The position numbers and the translations under genes were made by a program. The notes beneath the pieces are model-generated. The model saw only the letters and a list, made by a program, of their open reading frames with translations. It searched no databases and had not been told where the DNA came from. A stretch of 64,000 bases of DNA from Escherichia phage vB_EcoM_IME537. Where the stretch lies: sequence record NC_054921.1, one strand, 5' to 3'. Shown here one piece after another: positions 35,982 through 42,637 of this stretch. Position 1 is the stretch's first letter. Every line of letters starts with the position of its first letter.

Positions 35982-36311
35982 TCAATTAGAAAATAAATTT
36001 ATCCAAGATTGTTCTTTAATTAAAAATGGCTCAGAATCATATGCCATTAAACTCTGTGTGATTAGTCCTTTAAAAGGCCCATCAATAAATTCCATGGTAA
36101 AGTATGGAATTTTATTCATTAATCTCGCATTAGGAGCAGTACATAAAACTCTGCATCCTTTGAATACGCCTTTTTGCAATTTGTATTGCTTAGGATAAAA
36201 TTCGCTTAAAATGTTATTTTTTGCCAAAATTTCAAAATGATTCACCAATTTATTTTTAATAGTTTTTGGTGAAAAATAAAGATATTCGAAAAGCTGAGTG
36301 TCTGTCATCAT
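35982..36311 (-). CDS. vs.7: hypothetical protein (T4 vs.7 position)
   Basis: 109 aa from ATG 36311, overlapping the upstream stop. Confidence 0.4.
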
Positions 36312-36850
36312 TGCATTCCGATTACGAAAAACTGTGGACGAGTAATACCACCAATGCAGCATTTACTATTGCAGCAGTGTTGCACAGTTTCAATATGAAT
36401 ATCGTAAATTTTATCCATATCAGGAGATTTAACAGGCTCATCGATTATATACAAAATTCGAGAAAGCGATAAACCTCTGAACTTGCTACCTCTATTACCA
36501 ACAAAACTACGGACAGAATCAGTAAATAAACGGAATCGAATATCATCGCTAGAATAACGAGAAAATTCTTTTTTAATGCGGCCCGCAGAAATTTTAGCGT
36601 AAGCTGAAGTATTAGAAAGAACAATAACTGTTCCACCATCATACAACCAATTAGCGGCAAAATTAGTTACTGCAGTTGATTTACCAGATTGTCTGCCACC
36701 ATCTAAACGAAGTGTACAATATTCTTTAAATAAATGCGACGAATCAGGTACATAAAATCCACTATTACAAATTTCTTCTACTCTAGCATCAGAATGGTGT
36801 GTAAAAGCATTCATCAGGGATAGATAAGGACCAGTTAAAAATGTTCTCAT
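36308..36850 (-). CDS. vs.8: small P-loop NTPase
   Basis: Walker A GGRQSGKST, Walker B ILYIIDEP; start set to ATG 36850. Confidence 0.45.
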   Translation of the reverse strand: MRTFLTGPYLSLMNAFTHHSDARVEEICNSGFYVPDSSHLFKEYCTLRLDGGRQSGKSTAVTNFAANWLYDGGTVIVLSNTSAYAKISAGRIKKEFSRYSSDDIRFRLFTDSVRSFVGNRGSKFRGLSLSRILYIIDEPVKSPDMDKIYDIHIETVQHCCNSKCCIGGITRPQFFVIGMQ

Positions 36851-36991
36851 TTTATTCTCTCTAAATTTGGGCCATTCCATGGCGCATGAATTGTCCATTT
36901 CTGTATTTACCCATTACCGCACTTGGGCTCGACCTTATTACAGGTTGGCGGGAATCCCTCACAGAATCATGAGGTCCAGGTTGTTCCCATG

Positions 36992-37465
36992 TTATTTGAA
37001 CGATTTAACGTACTGAATAGAACCTTTACTATTCACGAAAGCGATTTTACCATTTTTATTATACATGGTAGCAGTACGCTGATAACCATAAGTTTGTTTA
37101 CCAGATTGATAACCAACTAATGCGAAATTATCTTCACCCATTTTATTCTGTTTAGCGCGAATACGTTCATGTCCATGCGCCATAAGAACCTTAGCATCAC
37201 CAGTTGCAATGGATCGACGAGTTTTTTCATCTTCAACTGTATTAACAAAATCATCAAATGAATCAAATTTAGCATGAGATTTATTATACAGTTTTCCATC
37301 TACTGCATAATTATATCCCTGTACATCCATCTCAACTTCTGTACCATCATCTAATACAGCAGTAATTTTCTGTCCTTTTTTAAATTTCAAAAGATCAGTA
37401 AAAGATTCAGCAATAATTTGAGAATTAATAGCTGCTTCAGTAATAAATTCTTGATATGTTTTCAT
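36992..37465 (-). CDS. internal-protein-like gene with N-terminal capsid targeting sequence (ipII/ipIII locus)
   Basis: 157 aa; N-terminus MKTYQEFITEA matches the T4 internal-protein targeting sequence. Confidence 0.65.
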   Translation of the reverse strand: MKTYQEFITEAAINSQIIAESFTDLLKFKKGQKITAVLDDGTEVEMDVQGYNYAVDGKLYNKSHAKFDSFDDFVNTVEDEKTRRSIATGDAKVLMAHGHERIRAKQNKMGEDNFALVGYQSGKQTYGYQRTATMYNKNGKIAFVNSKGSIQYVKSFK

Positions 37466-37508
37466 ATGTTTCCTTTAAATGTAAATATTTTAATTAGTAA
37501 CTGTGAAT

Positions 37509-37538
37509 ATACTATCACAGTTCTAGGAGAAAGTAAAC
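37509..37538 (-). promoter_or_regulatory. sigma70-type early promoter within an inverted repeat, upstream of the internal-protein-like gene
   Basis: GTTTACT-N17-TAGTAT; flanking ACTGTGA / TCACAGT. Confidence 0.5.
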
Positions 37539-37542
37539 AACT

Positions 37543-38073
<531 letters not shown>

Positions 38074-38529
38074 TTAAAAGAGGTTGTTCATTATTCGGTA
38101 AAGTGAAGGACCCATCACATATTGCCACTGAGTACGAGGAATAAGAGCAAAAGCGTCCATCTCTGGAATCATAACGCCATCTTTATTTTCAAAATAAGAC
38201 TCGCAATGGCAATTTCTAAACATCTCATGCTCTACTGGAATCGTATAATAAAATAACTGTAAGTCTTTATTACTAGAATATTTAAATACACCTAGGTCTT
38301 CTAGAAGGTCTGGATTATAATTGCTAAAACCAGTCTCTTCTAAACATTCTCTTCGTGCTGCATCTAGTACGCTTAAATCAGAATTTTCTACGCGGCCCTT
38401 TGGGATATCCCAGCGATGTGCCATCATTCCAGGCTTACGAGAACCAGTAACCCGTCCCATGAATAAATCTTTATCTTCGGTCATAAAGATAATACCAGCT
38501 GATAGTGTTTTCATTTTAATTTCCTGCAT
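38074..38529 (-). CDS. nudE: Nudix hydrolase NudE
   Basis: 151 aa; Nudix box GRVENSDLSVLDAARRECLEETG; an alternative ATG at 38514 has a better SD. Confidence 0.8.
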   Translation of the reverse strand: MQEIKMKTLSAGIIFMTEDKDLFMGRVTGSRKPGMMAHRWDIPKGRVENSDLSVLDAARRECLEETGFSNYNPDLLEDLGVFKYSSNKDLQLFYYTIPVEHEMFRNCHCESYFENKDGVMIPEMDAFALIPRTQWQYVMGPSLYRIMNNLF

Positions 38530-38999
38530 TCAGTGATAAAGTTATTTAAATTTTGAGTATATTTCTTTTCATCAAAAATCTTTTGTTGTCTGCGTAGCCG
38601 CCATGGCATTTCAATGAACGTGTACCATATCCCAGATAATATTGCTGCTGTAAAAATATTAACAAGTATGGTTAAAAGAATCCAATCTCCTATTCTGTCC
38701 ATTGGATTTTTTATAAAAAAGTAAAATACGAATGATGTCACAGGAAGACTAATAATATACCACAGAATCATAATCTTATCTGTGAACCAATCAGCGTTCG
38801 TTAATTTAGCGCGACCATTATGAATACACACGAATTTATCATCTGTTGCAGTAGATGGCTTAACTGGTTGATATCCCATTCTAAACTCCCTAATCAGCAA
38901 ATTTTTCATATCTTCGGAACAGCCATTCCAGTCAACTCTATCAACTGGAATGCCATCATCCCCATCATCTAAATCATACCAGCGAGTTTTTAAAATCAT
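38511..38999 (-). CDS. membrane protein, tandem paralog 1 of 3
   Basis: 162 aa; transmembrane segments; C-terminal FITECRK. Confidence 0.5.
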   Translation of the reverse strand: MILKTRWYDLDDGDDGIPVDRVDWNGCSEDMKNLLIREFRMGYQPVKPSTATDDKFVCIHNGRAKLTNADWFTDKIMILWYIISLPVTSFVFYFFIKNPMDRIGDWILLTILVNIFTAAILSGIWYTFIEMPWRLRRQQKIFDEKKYTQNLNNFITECRKLK

Positions 39000-39358
39000 C
39001 TGATTTTCCTACAATCACTTACAAACTCTTTCATTGATTCATTTTCAATATAAGACATGTAGTTATTATATTCTTTTAATTGTATTTTGTAATCCTTTTT
39101 TCTTTGCCAATTTATTTTAAAATTATCATAATGAAAATATAACATGGTACCAAAGAATGAAAATAATGAAATCGCTATAGTAAAACGAAGTTCACTCCAA
39201 ACCTCTGTTATAATTGCTGAACCATCGATGTTTAAAATAATACAGTCAATCATTAATCCAATAAGACTACCCGCAAGAGCTGTAAATACTGATACAGCAA
39301 GAATTAATAGTGCCTCAGGAAACGAATATTTGACTTTATTTAGTTTTGGCTTTTGCAT
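38996..39358 (-). CDS. membrane protein, tandem paralog 2 of 3
   Basis: 120 aa; C-terminal FVSDCRK. Confidence 0.5.
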   Translation of the reverse strand: MQKPKLNKVKYSFPEALLILAVSVFTALAGSLIGLMIDCIILNIDGSAIITEVWSELRFTIAISLFSFFGTMLYFHYDNFKINWQRKKDYKIQLKEYNNYMSYIENESMKEFVSDCRKIR

Positions 39359-39732
39359 CGTGATTCCTTAACAAATTTCATAATTTCATCAAATTCATAC
39401 GCAGCAAGTTTAAGCTGATGTTCTTTTTTAATCTTTTTGCACTGGGCTTTCCACTCACGTACGCGTTTACGATAATGTCTTCCTTGATACCAGTATCCTA
39501 CCCAATTTACAGGTACTAATAAAAGCGGAATTATTAATGGAAGAATTAGTGTTGCTCCAAATATTGCACCAGATTCAATATCAGTCATAACGTCTATAAC
39601 CATTCCAGCAATCAGCAGAATCACAAATGATACAGCTACCACAGGACCTATTAATACATCAGTAGGAATTAGCTGACGCTTTAGTTCATACTTCACAGGT
39701 TTACTTGGAAGGTATAGTGATGGCTTTGACAT
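39340..39732 (-). CDS. membrane protein, tandem paralog 3 of 3
   Basis: 130 aa from ATG 39732; C-terminal FVKESRCK. Confidence 0.45.
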   Translation of the reverse strand: MSKPSLYLPSKPVKYELKRQLIPTDVLIGPVVAVSFVILLIAGMVIDVMTDIESGAIFGATLILPLIIPLLLVPVNWVGYWYQGRHYRKRVREWKAQCKKIKKEHQLKLAAYEFDEIMKFVKESRCKSQN

Positions 39733-40315
39733 ATTCTCTACATTCCTTAACAAATTTTTCTAGTAATAAATCGCTTTCAAAATTAGGATTTTCCACGAAT
39801 TTATCAAAAAGATCATCAACAATAGTCAAGATATTCTTTTTACTAAGAATACGCTTATTTTCATATTTTGTTTCAGAATCAACTATAAGAGTAAAGAAAT
39901 ATTTCTTTCCCTGAAATTTTACCGTAGTATCAATATAGAACAAATTTGACTTTTGTAAATTACGTTTAAACCATGCATCACTTAAACTATAAACGCCAAG
40001 ATAATCATAATCGTCGTTTAAATAACAAACCGTCCATTCAGGAGAAATGAAATCAGTAAATTCAACATCAAAATCACACGTCAATGAATGAATTGATTCA
40101 ATACTGTTAATGAGTATTCCAGGACGTATTAAAGACTTTTTACCTCTAGAAAATCTTCCAGAAAGACTTTCATCAGTTTCATATGAAGACCCCCAATAGT
40201 AATTACGTCCTTCTGCCATACGTTTAAGAGCATTTAGTAATTGGTCTGGAACATCAACCTGTCTTTGGAACTCTTCAAACATTGAATTGAAATCACTTTG
40301 CATTTTCATTTTCAT
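39701..40315 (-). CDS. hypothetical protein
   Basis: 204-aa ORF, ATG start. Confidence 0.5.
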   Translation of the reverse strand: MKMKMQSDFNSMFEEFQRQVDVPDQLLNALKRMAEGRNYYWGSSYETDESLSGRFSRGKKSLIRPGILINSIESIHSLTCDFDVEFTDFISPEWTVCYLNDDYDYLGVYSLSDAWFKRNLQKSNLFYIDTTVKFQGKKYFFTLIVDSETKYENKRILSKKNILTIVDDLFDKFVENPNFESDLLLEKFVKECREYVKAITIPSK

Positions 40316-40334
40316 TCCTATTTACTCCAAGTAT

Positions 40335-40352
40335 AAGGGGCCGAAGCCCCTT
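40335..40352 (-). other. intercistronic C(UUCG)G hairpin
   Basis: AAGGGGCCGAAGCCCCTT. Confidence 0.35.
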
Positions 40353-40356
40353 ATCA

Positions 40357-40950
40357 TTATTTCAGAGAATTAATGTATTCCTGAACATCGGCAGAGGTAG
40401 TTTCAACCCCGGAAATATTACCGTTAAAGGTTTCAACTCGAGCAAGAGTATCTTCAATATCAACCTTAGTCAGTGCTGCGATTTCAACTACATCATCAGC
40501 AGTACTAATTCCAAGGGCATTTGCCGCACGAGTTTCACGGATATATTCCAATTTAACTGCAAGTTCTTGGCGAGCATCATCTAACTCAACTACTTTCTTG
40601 GCGATTTCAATTCGCATTTCAGCATAACCATCAGCTTTAGTAGTCAACTGCTCAGCTGTTCGACGATATAGTAAACCGAGCTTAGCATGCATTGTTACAT
40701 CTTGACCTTCGGAAAGAAGTTTGCGAATTTCACGCTCTTTTGATTCGGCTTGTCGATTCTTTTCGATAACAAGTTCACGAATACGTTTTTCTTCATTAAT
40801 AGATTTAACAGAAGCAGTTTTTAGGTCTTTAATTTTATCAAGAAGTTTTGCTGCTGCAGCAGTATACTGTTCTTCGACAGATAGATTTTTAGCCATAGCA
40901 GAACCAAGTTTAGTGCGAATAAACTCAACAATTTTCTTCAGTGTGTTCAT
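40357..40950 (-). CDS. coiled-coil protein with PspA/IM30-like character
   Basis: 197 aa; almost entirely heptad-rich helix. Confidence 0.45.
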
Positions 40951-40993
40951 AGTATTTCCTTAGGTTAATTGAGATTTAAAATCTGCGGAAGAA

Positions 40994-41524
40994 TTATATC
41001 CCATTATTTGAGAGATGTAAACTATTTTTAATTTTACAAATTCGTTCAGCTTCATCGATAGCAGCATTAATAATGCTTTTAGCTATAGGAGTACTAATAC
41101 TAGTAGCTTTTACACTTAACACGATTTCTTTATCTTTACCAGGCCAACCCCACGATTTTTCACCGTGAGTGCCTTTAATTACAGCAGACACCTCAAGTGA
41201 GCATCCATTATCACATGTTTTTACATTAACAACCCAAGGGTCACTTTTCTCAATCGGTTTCTCAATCGGTTTATCCCAGTAAATATTAAGAATACGTGGA
41301 ACATCAAATTTGGCAGGACAAATCTTAACCGTAAGACCTTCGCTTTCTAGCCAATTAATAAGAGGGCGTTCATACAGGCGACGATGTGGGCTTGGGATTC
41401 GACAAGCCTTATGTCCGTTGCTTGCGGCTTCACTAAGCTGTTCTAATACCTGCTTTTGCATTATTGATAAAATACCATCAAAAGATCTTTCGGAAGTTTC
41501 ATTCAGTTCGGTATAAAGAGACAT
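40994..41524 (-). CDS. hypothetical protein
   Basis: 176-aa ORF, ATG start. Confidence 0.5.
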   Translation of the reverse strand: MSLYTELNETSERSFDGILSIMQKQVLEQLSEAASNGHKACRIPSPHRRLYERPLINWLESEGLTVKICPAKFDVPRILNIYWDKPIEKPIEKSDPWVVNVKTCDNGCSLEVSAVIKGTHGEKSWGWPGKDKEIVLSVKATSISTPIAKSIINAAIDEAERICKIKNSLHLSNNGI

Positions 41525-42053: not shown

Positions 42054-42081
42054 AAAAAGCCCCAACCTTTCGGCTGGGGCT
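42054..42081 (-). terminator. rho-independent terminator, copy A of a direct repeat
   Basis: transcript AGCCCCAGCCGAAAGGUUGGGGCU then UUUUU; 8 nt downstream of the 42089 stop. Confidence 0.6.
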
Positions 42082-42088
42082 AAGAATG

Positions 42089-42562
42089 TTATTTAATTTG
42101 TTTAGCAGACCAAATGCGGTCTTTGATAATTTTTTGGATGTCTTCAACATACTCAAGAGAGTGAGCATGCGGGTTATCTTTGAAACTATAAGCACGAGCT
42201 AACTTTTGGCCTTCAGTTTTGATTACTAAAAGCTCTTTAAGGATAGCTTCATATTTAGAAATAATTCCTTTAACAATATTTTTTTCTTGTGCAGCTTTAG
42301 GATCTGCTTTAGGAGCAGGTTTACCCGAAGCCTTTGCAAAAGCAGCGCCAGTAGCAACTAAACTTTTCCAGGCCATACTAACTGCATTTCCCGTAAATCC
42401 TTCTGCTTTCATGTCGCGAGCAAACTGGAATCGTGATTCGTCAGAAGCATCTTTATAGGAATATTTACCCGCTGCAATGGCTGCTTTTGCGACAGCTTGA
42501 ATTTCGGTGCTAGATGCTTCATTTAACACCGCTTCATTTAAAAATTGAGCATATGATTTCAT
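42089..42562 (-). CDS. internal-protein-like gene with capsid targeting sequence, lying between two terminator repeats
   Basis: 157 aa; N-terminus MKSYAQFLNEA; late promoter upstream. Confidence 0.6.
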   Translation of the reverse strand: MKSYAQFLNEAVLNEASSTEIQAVAKAAIAAGKYSYKDASDESRFQFARDMKAEGFTGNAVSMAWKSLVATGAAFAKASGKPAPKADPKAAQEKNIVKGIISKYEAILKELLVIKTEGQKLARAYSFKDNPHAHSLEYVEDIQKIIKDRIWSAKQIK

Positions 42563-42599: not shown

Positions 42600-42607
42600 T
42601 ATTTATA
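42600..42607 (-). promoter_or_regulatory. late promoter TATAAATA
   Basis: TATAAATA on the minus strand about 38 nt upstream of the 42562 start. Confidence 0.5.
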
Positions 42608-42609
42608 CT

Positions 42610-42637
42610 AAAAAGCCCCAACCTTTCGGTCGGGGCT
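42610..42637 (-). terminator. rho-independent terminator, copy B of the direct repeat (end of tRNA/stable-RNA transcript)
   Basis: transcript AGCCCCGACCGAAAGGUUGGGGCU then UUUUU. Confidence 0.6.

Follow-up and report, generated by a model that had tools for sequence, protein, structure and literature searches.

What relates the three small membrane-protein genes that stand in tandem beside the Nudix hydrolase gene nudE of a T-even phage, and what might their products do together? The genes lie in a 64,000-nucleotide stretch of Escherichia phage vB_EcoM_IME537 (NC_054921.1), referred to as the window, for which a sequence-only reading had proposed three paralogous proteins with membrane helices and related basic tails. 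The three open reading frames (ORFs) are located exactly as that reading had placed them, at 38511..38999, 38996..39358 and 39340..39732, all on the minus strand. Relative to transcription, however, they lie upstream (5') of nudE and not downstream of it, as had been stated. The window is Tequatrovirus DNA. By megablast, the 2.4 kb around the array has 99.9% identity to Escherichia phage F2. It matches 512 phage records, nearly all from Tequatrovirus; in 496, the match covers 80% or more of the query. The three ORFs are one-to-one orthologs of the uncharacterised T4 early genes e.2, e.3, and e.4, respectively, which are named msp7, msp6, and msp5 in the original T4 record L13089. Their products share 78-89% amino-acid identity with the T4 counterparts (82% for e.4), and the gene order e.5 - e.4 - e.3 - e.2 - nudE - e is identical in the window, NC_000866, and L13089. 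T4 annotation describes each product as "conserved hypothetical, predicted membrane protein" (UniProt P32273, P32274, and P39222 for e.2, e.3, and e.4, respectively), and approximately 500 sequenced genomes carry the genes. They are thus already catalogued, as accessory genes of the T4 e.2/e.3/e.4 groups. What is new here, modestly, is the paralogy of e.3 and e.4, a C-terminal motif that they and e.2 have in common with e.5, and the dual coding of this motif with the downstream ribosome-binding site.

The relationship among the three proteins is beyond the reach of pairwise BLASTP, which gave no significant match; the best values were E=0.06 between full-length e.3 and e.4, and E=0.012 between the tails of e.2 and e.3. 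PHROGs likewise splits them into separate families, each with a full-length match: 2203 for e.2 (labelled 'membrane protein', E 3e-79), 2330 for e.3 (E 9e-58), and 2604 for e.4 (E 4e-70). We then compared profiles with hhalign; the underlying family alignments contain Mosigvirus, Gaprivervirus, Dhakavirus, and Jiaodavirus sequences from annotated phage records. The e.3 and e.4 profiles align with a probability of 94-95% (E 6e-8 to 2e-7, score 46-48) over 60-75 columns, which span the loop, the second transmembrane segment (TM2), and the tail. When columns were shuffled within topological segments, none of 70 comparisons reached this score (mean 17.6, standard deviation 3.8, maximum 29.5), and reversed profiles scored 15-16. 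Between e.3 and e.2, the alignment has a score of 33.5 and covers the last 16 residues only. None of 100 shuffles reached that score either (mean 14.3, maximum 20.3), and enlarging the families with the domain-less e.2 of Citrobacter phage CkP1 and a 98-residue Jiaodavirus protein gave a probability of 93.6% over 18 columns. Between e.4 and e.2, hhalign returned a probability of 1%, that is, no supported similarity.

Searches with profile hidden Markov models (HMMs) gave the same ranking. The e.3 HMM retrieves its own family, followed by all six e.4 proteins, the e.2 proteins, and then e.5, and the e.4 HMM retrieves e.3 proteins next after its own family. When the HMMs are run against all 1262 ORFs from the six frames of T4, e.3 and e.4 each retrieve the other as best non-self hit, and the two N-termini are alike (MQKPKL... 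and MSKPSL..., respectively). The profiles thus identify e.3 and e.4 as true, diverged tandem paralogs. They mark e.2 as a different protein, which is linked to e.3 and e.4 through its architecture and, detectably, only through the C-terminal motif. Hence, the proposal of three paralogs stands for e.3 and e.4 at the profile level, shrinks to 16-18 tail residues for e.3 and e.2, and fails for e.4 and e.2; similarity beyond composition does not extend to every pair, and the three do not make up one family. What all three do share is an arrangement of a hairpin with cytoplasmic ends, a basic tail, and a C-terminal [FW][IV]x[ED]C[RK], from which e.4 deviates by ending in FVKESRCK and carrying an internal WKAQCKK.

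As had been proposed, membrane helices are followed by a basic stretch in each protein: Kyte-Doolittle analysis detects two hydrophobic segments ahead of it in e.2, e.3, and e.4. In the 130-residue hairpin protein e.4 (39340..39732, minus strand), hydropathy and an AlphaFold2 model place the first transmembrane segment (TM1) at approximately residues 27-47 (39592..39654) and TM2 at approximately residues 56-79 (39496-39567). Hydropathy places the corresponding segments of e.3, a hairpin protein of 120 residues, at approximately residues 16-43 (39230..39313) and 58-76 (39131-39187). In e.2, a protein of 162 residues, an acidic N-terminal domain of 75 residues precedes the hairpin, whose segments are found at approximately residues 76-96 (38712..38774) and 106-130 (38610-38684), and the basic tail follows; all these segments are encoded on the minus strand. 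Both e.3 and e.4 have a basic N-terminus and an acidic loop of 8-14 residues, with a tail of net charge +3 and +9, respectively. The loop of e.2 is neutral and has nine residues, and its tail has a net charge of +6. Because of this charge distribution, both termini of all three proteins are predicted to be cytoplasmic, a topology with which the sequences are consistent. The AlphaFold2 model of e.4 (predicted local distance difference test score, pLDDT, of 76) is a hairpin with a helix at residues 24-49, a four-residue turn, and a continuous helix at residues 54-129. As the latter helix is unbroken in the model, TM2 would extend into the cytoplasm as a helix of approximately 50 residues. A fold search with the e.4 model in BFVD and PDB returned only its own family or matches with E >1.

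The aligned C-termini share the pattern L-x-x-[FW]-[IV]-x-[ED]-C-[RK]-[KE]. The tails are ...NNFITECRKLK in e.2, ...KEFVSDCRKIR in e.3, and ...MKFVKESRCKSQN in e.4, so the endings FITECRK, FVSDCRK, and FVKESRCK had been quoted correctly, and a motif scan puts their similarity far beyond chance. The motif is not confined to membrane proteins, since it also terminates e.5 (39701..40315, minus strand), a soluble protein of 204 residues (PHROG 2607, E 3e-110) that ends in ...LLLEKFVKECREYVKAITIPSK, with FVKECRE in the motif block ...LLLEKFVKECREYVK.... The e.5 orthologs of five genera barely align in their bodies, and the motif is their conserved block; the e.2 and e.3 profiles, when aligned to e.5 by hhalign, land precisely on it (P 3e-4 and 7e-4, respectively). 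Other Tevenvirinae proteins encoded at this locus have C-termini of the same kind. In Klebsiella phage 311F, these are a 98-residue protein (WIRSCRK) and a soluble 102-residue protein (FIAKCRAK), and a 112-residue protein of CkP1 ends in FIIGCRRLK. When every frame of 50 or more codons in the window is scanned, the strict pattern [FW][IVL]x[EDSGYK]C[RK] has three matches, which are the C-termini of e.5, e.3, and e.2. In a six-frame scan of the whole T4 genome it occurs four times, three of them at these same C-termini. As the pattern was derived from the array sequences themselves, formal probabilities overstate the case. Nonetheless, the motif clearly belongs to the e.5-e.2 gene run and not to T4 gene ends generally, and no other part of the four families is as well conserved. 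The e.3 tail profile also aligns to a segment of the archaeal SecE of M. jannaschii, 'QLKEFIEECRRV' (1rh5_B), in which L, E, F, I/V, E/D, C, R, and K/R are matched. This resemblance to SecE/Sec61-gamma was rejected as not significant (E 0.54, per-domain E ~30), and the Pfam library, which includes the SecE family, reported nothing for any tail at E up to 10. In SecE, the amphipathic helix precedes the membrane helix, whereas the e.3-type motif comes after it; convergence of short amphipathic helices is the most likely explanation.

The codons of the motif have a second role at the gene junctions. The genes e.5, e.4, e.3, e.2, and nudE form a run whose reading frames overlap by 32, 19, 4, and 4 nucleotides in that order, and AAGGAA or AGGAAA stands 5-10 nucleotides ahead of the ATG at each junction. 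These Shine-Dalgarno sequences are read in the upstream gene as motif residues, either K-E (AAG GAA) or C-R-K (TGY AGG AAA), and AAATGA supplies the stop/start overlap. In e.5, K190-E191 of the motif F188-R193 (FVKECR, 39737..39754) forms the Shine-Dalgarno sequence of e.4. In e.4, the C-terminal motif F120-K127 (FVKESRCK, 39352..39375) provides AAG GAA for e.3, and the e.3 start lies within its cgA TGC. In e.3, the motif F112-K118 (FVSDCRK, 39005..39025) provides TGT AGG AAA for e.2, and in e.2, F154-K160 (FITECRK, 38520..38540) provides TGC AGG AAA for nudE. All these motifs are on the minus strand, as is the internal motif of e.4, W94-K100 (WKAQCKK, 39433..39453), which overlaps no junction; its W94 and C98 are invariant across four genera. 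With low probability, hhalign places the e.2 tail on this internal copy. The e.4 start is ATG 39732, which has a ribosome-binding site and agrees with the T4 annotation, TTG 39753 being a mere extension of the ORF. ATGA overlaps tie e.2 both to e.3 upstream and to nudE downstream. The nudE start is likely ATG 38514, where AGGAAA serves as Shine-Dalgarno sequence and the ATG overlaps the e.2 stop as ATGA. The nudE ORF also permits a start at 38529 (MQEIKMKT...), as in the T4 RefSeq record, and the original msp8 annotation agrees with 38514. Neither the late-promoter consensus TATAAATA nor a MotA box was found inside the array. The five genes are an early, translationally coupled run with no internal late or middle promoter.

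As the motif codons are also the downstream ribosome-binding site, the motif could partly be conserved at the RNA level. Synonymous changes across genera are seen at Phe (TTT/TTC), Ile/Val (ATC/ATT/ATA), Glu, Cys (TGT/TGC), and Arg (AGG/AGA/CGT/CGC). Changes of this kind at Phe, Ile/Val, and Cys, positions irrelevant to ribosome binding, indicate that RNA constraint alone is insufficient. Three further observations lead to the same conclusion. In Dhakavirus and Gaprivervirus e.2, Arg is kept although AGG has changed to CGT, and the Shine-Dalgarno sequence has moved to GAGGAA. The 102-residue protein of 311F keeps the motif although its stop codon lies 28 nucleotides before the next start. The internal W94-x3-C98 of e.4 (EWKAQCKK) is invariant, far from any junction. 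We therefore read the shared tail as a probably genuine peptide motif that also encodes the downstream ribosome-binding site, in a junction that would also have been copied by duplication. The array also contains a 16-nucleotide exact direct repeat, one copy of which is at the e.5/e.4 junction (39742..39757) and the other at the e.4/e.3 junction (39363..39378). The repeat reads ATTCCTTAACAAATTT on the plus strand and AAATTTGTTAAGGAAT on the coding strand, where it encodes K-F-V-K-E, and its copies flank e.4, 379 nucleotides apart. A similarity between the e.3/e.2 and e.2/nudE junctions (61 nucleotides, 66%) was set aside, as chance matches elsewhere in the window equal it. In the T4 guide-RNA table of PMC11879866, e.4 is listed as an off-target of the guide against the e.3 ribosome-binding site.

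Conservation is unevenly distributed along the proteins. Among Tequatrovirus sequences, entropy is lowest in the cytoplasmic N-termini and tails, at 0.14-0.26 (0.14-0.20 for the tails alone). It rises to 0.39-0.63 in the membrane helices and reaches as much as 0.94 in the periplasmic loops. The most variable segment is the e.4 loop DVMTDIES, with an entropy of 0.94 vs 0.17 in the tail. The ratio of nonsynonymous to synonymous substitution rates (dN/dS) is 0.3-0.55 overall and 0.66-0.9 in the hairpins of close relatives, and the loops carry insertions and deletions. The families are confined to Tevenvirinae: the e.4 profile found seven matches among 1.84 billion representative proteins, each of them an e.4 or a rearranged form of it and none a link to e.3 or e.2, and an IMG/VR scan with the e.3 alignment found ten loci, all T4-like.

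The array varies in content and position among genera. In Mosigvirus and Gaprivervirus, e.4 and e.3 are kilobases from e and are followed by other genes, and e.2 lies approximately 3 kb away beside nudE. Jiaodavirus has e.4 and two other hairpin proteins, and the only such protein of Karamvirus is e.2-like and lacks the N-terminal domain. Rearranged natural forms include an in-frame e.4(1-31)::e.2(87-162) fusion without e.3, found on five contigs (P0145), whose joint GPV|TSF lies inside TM1 of both parents; an e.4 that misses the whole hairpin (P0196); and a Mosigvirus e.3 that bears an e.4 tail (P0199). The e.2 of reference T4 is also altered. It has 102 residues instead of the full 162 in the window, owing to a one-nucleotide deletion (A5 for A6; window 38707-38712, coding strand), and a one-nucleotide insertion 78 nucleotides after the deletion restores the frame distally (L001 7465-7720). 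The 102-residue form is found in other deposited phages too (P0195; 22 member sequences, 4 contigs). Arbiol et al. reportedly described in 2010 that hyperplastic regions of T4-type phages are shuffled modularly through short conserved intergenic cassettes, the PeSL elements. The array resembles this arrangement in that short repeated boundaries flank variable small ORFs in a plastic T-even region, with a content that varies by genus. It differs in that its boundary is a coding tail with a Shine-Dalgarno sequence and an overlapping start, rather than a promoter with a stem-loop, and in that the DNA similarity is weak.

Two published T4 datasets bear on when the genes act and whether they are needed. 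In the supplement of a time-resolved transcriptome/proteome study, the RNAs of e.2, e.3, e.4, and e.5 fall into the early class, and each of the four proteins is listed as detected (PMC9697503). In the supplement of the genome-wide CRISPRi-ART screen, the score for e.2, e.3, e.4, e.5, e.6, and nudE is 'Not Fit' throughout, which stands for no fitness effect of the knockdown, and the table gives the prior essentiality of e.2-e.6 and nudE as unknown (PMC11879866). A literature search under the gene names e.2, e.3, and e.4 returned nothing relevant. Scans of e.2-e.6 against Pfam, NCBIfam, and PADLOC gave no match above noise, with zero PADLOC families and only sub-threshold NCBIfam matches. Pfam families precomputed on all homologs exist for e.2 (PF26896) and e.4 (PF26873), and the Pfam library scanned here did not include these two.

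The account that we favour, tentatively and at somewhat less than even confidence, is that the hairpins are anchors, and that the cytoplasmic helices with the motif associate with each other and with e.5, or with a common partner, in a dispensable complex. The fast-evolving hairpins would serve to hold the proteins in the membrane, and the work would be done by the long helix that extends from TM2 into the cytoplasm and is terminated by the amphipathic motif with its Cys. Such helices would most likely bundle mutually and with e.5, or dock on a single shared partner at the cytoplasmic face of the inner membrane. The outcome would be an early, membrane-tethered accessory complex, the proportions of whose subunits could be fixed by translational coupling. 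As the complex would be dispensable in laboratory hosts, a function in host range or host interaction is probable. The repeated junction of tail, Shine-Dalgarno sequence, and start codon would allow unequal recombination there, by which the array may have arisen and may keep rearranging. The protein-protein contacts among e.2-e.5 are what we infer from sequence features. A bolder version, which we regard as improbable, would make the motif an unrecognised docking or assembly motif that joins e.5 (and the 102-residue Jiaodavirus protein) with e.4, e.3, and e.2 in an early inner-membrane complex translationally coupled to NudE; the single conserved Cys of each subunit may contribute to a shared metal or redox centre, and the junction would be a recombination module by which T-even phages gain, lose, and fuse members of the array.

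Several observations weigh against the anchored-complex account. Only monomers were modelled, and the AlphaFold2 model of e.2 (pLDDT 51) is too poor for use. The variability of the helices and loops would be explained just as well by an arms race fought in the periplasm as by passive anchoring. Since reference T4 has an e.2 without TM2 and tail, and natural phages have lost e.3, no fewer than two of the tails can be dispensed with. In their DNA, the junctions are only weakly alike: no non-self blastn match ranks above the 16-nucleotide repeat, yet in 64 kb its E is 0.05, and the remaining junction pairs resemble each other at chance level. The possible RNA-level component of motif conservation counts here too, and Cys126 of e.4 (in FVKESRCK) is forced by the overlapping e.3 ATG. 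These last points lead to an explanation in which the shared tail is a by-product of junction architecture, copied by tandem duplication or unequal crossover, the proteins being independent membrane ORFans and the peptide having no function. Ribosome-binding codons for K-E or C-R-K together with the AAATGA overlap at nearly every junction, the exact repeat at two junctions, the start-dictated Cys126, a tail on the non-membrane e.5, and chimeras with breakpoints in or near junction regions all agree with it. However, the remaining overlapping junctions of the window and of the complete T4 genome do not give the motif, and a Shine-Dalgarno sequence does not require Phe, Ile/Val, or Cys. Nor does junction architecture account for the Arg that outlasts the shift of the Shine-Dalgarno sequence, the motif of the 311F gene with its distant next start, the motif as the sole conserved block of the highly diverged e.5 orthologs, or the internal W-x3-C copy kept in e.4. 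We consider the by-product explanation unlikely, though it keeps some weight.

Other explanations assign the proteins to known kinds of phage function, namely the three that the sequence-only reading had named as typical of such tandem paralogs (superinfection exclusion, defence evasion, and lysis timing). If the array acted on the envelope like Imm, early insertion into the inner membrane would stop DNA injection by competitors, with paralogs for different competitors. Early RNA with detected protein, the predicted inner-membrane location, dispensability in single infection, the gain and loss of tandem paralogs by lineage, and the fastest evolution being in helices and periplasmic loops (dN/dS, entropy, and indels as given above) would all suit superinfection exclusion. 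T4 Imm is itself annotated as a small, early, non-essential inner-membrane protein with two hydrophobic segments. However, Imm has 83 residues and lacks both the basic cytoplasmic helix of 30-50 residues and the C-terminal motif. When the e.3, e.4, and e.2 HMMs were searched against all T4 ORFs, imm appeared only at E 0.62, with the e.3 HMM, and sp was not among the matches. T4 already encodes Imm and Sp, the periplasmic loops have just 8-14 residues, the conserved and presumably functional parts are cytoplasmic, and no experimental hint was found in the sources consulted; exclusion is a rather doubtful function for the array. The cytoplasmic conserved parts would also fit a membrane-anchored counter-defence, with the tails binding or titrating a membrane-associated immunity effector or protease of the host, and NudE perhaps removing a nucleotide signal. 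The genes are early, non-essential, restricted to Tevenvirinae, and variable in copy number among genera, and they are tightly coupled to a Nudix hydrolase annotated for ADP-ribose, NADH, and ApnA. Yet this argument is purely contextual: the proteins have no homology to known anti-defence proteins, the PADLOC, Pfam, and NCBIfam scans gave no match, and several genera have e.4 and e.3 kilobases from nudE. We judge counter-defence, too, to be quite unlikely.

Lysis timing is disfavoured and largely excluded. Class II holins, such as S21 of phage 21, are small proteins with two membrane helices, cytoplasmic termini, and a charged C-terminal tail, and by prediction e.2, e.3, and e.4 have this topology; the Tequatrovirus copies are also within 1 kb of the endolysin gene e, with which a holin- or antiholin-like protein would work. 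Against this, the tails of e.2-e.4 are much longer, no holin family was matched in Pfam or PHROGs, and neither the late expression nor the lysis requirement of class II holins is seen, as the array RNAs are early and knockdown had no fitness effect. The lysozyme gene e (37543-38037, minus strand) has late promoters of its own, two tandem copies of TATAAATA at 38051-38058 and 38064-38071 (minus strand) in the 36-nucleotide gap between the nudE stop and the e start, and the array has none. Translation of the array is coupled to nudE, not to e, and e.3 and e.4 are distant from e in other genera. Moreover, T4 annotation puts the lysis genes elsewhere, with t as holin, rI and rIII as antiholins, and pseT.3/pseT.2 as spanins.

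The neighbourhood of the array has some further features. The gene nudE (38074..38529, minus strand) is the last of the coupled run and adjoins e; it is assigned by T4 annotation and by a match to Pfam NUDIX (E 7e-14). Beyond e.5, the first gene of the run, lies e.6 (40357-40950, minus strand), and upstream of e.6 is a sigma-70 early-type promoter-like site (40993..41021, minus strand; TTTACA-17-TATAAT, 11/12 matches). L13089 annotates -35/-10 signals upstream of msp3 (e.6), and the site is the likely source of a transcript that would cover the array. The 41-nucleotide gap between e.6 and e.5 holds a stable, perfect hairpin with a UUCG loop, GGGGCUUCGGCCCC (40333..40354, minus strand), at a position where L13089 also marks a stem-loop; an Rfam scan of 37400-41200 matched no family. 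A role of e.6 as a PspA-like partner was dropped, as Pfam gave it no support. The GenBank label 'host specificity protein' on e.6, the label 'sulfurtransferase' on many e.3 and e.4 homologs (including WP-type bacterial entries), and the label 'DNA primase' have no support from the profile libraries and were treated as annotation noise.

In Mosigvirus and Gaprivervirus, three to five tandem small soluble genes directly follow e.3 (L003 3231-4025; L004 2851-4110; L008 3191-4212). All of them end in W-[VY]-x-S-S-x-x-C (GAWVSSSALC, GGWVASSHTC, QGWVSSSYSC, FWYNSSMSC, and IWYPSSC), and they form a second tandem family with a C-terminal Cys motif. Elsewhere in the window, two proteins of 157 residues (36992-37465 and 42089-42562, both on the minus strand) start with MKTYQEFITEA... 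and MKSYAQFLNEA..., respectively, which are presumably the N-terminal capsid-targeting signature of T4 internal head proteins. They sit where T4 has ipIII/ipII and e.8/e.7, and the former matches DUF7412 (E 6e-96). The gene at 42089-42562 has its own late-promoter consensus TATAAATA at 42600-42607 and is bracketed by near-identical terminator-like hairpins at 42614-42637 and 42058-42081 (minus strand; AGCCCC[GA][AG]CCGAAAGGTTGGGGCT followed by a T-run), an arrangement that looks like a self-contained gene cassette. Between the other internal-protein-like gene and the next genes lies an ORF of 196 residues (36308-36898, minus strand) with a Walker-A-like GGRQSGKST and weak Pfam matches to AAA and terminase-N; T4 annotation has no such gene at that place.

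By itself, the finding does not reveal a new kind of system. The genes e.2-e.5 belong to the approximately half of T4 genes that are without a function, though they are early and conserved in hundreds of T-even genomes. With the paralogy of e.3 and e.4, the motif common to four proteins, and the conserved surfaces on the cytoplasmic side, what were anonymous "predicted membrane proteins" become concretely testable.

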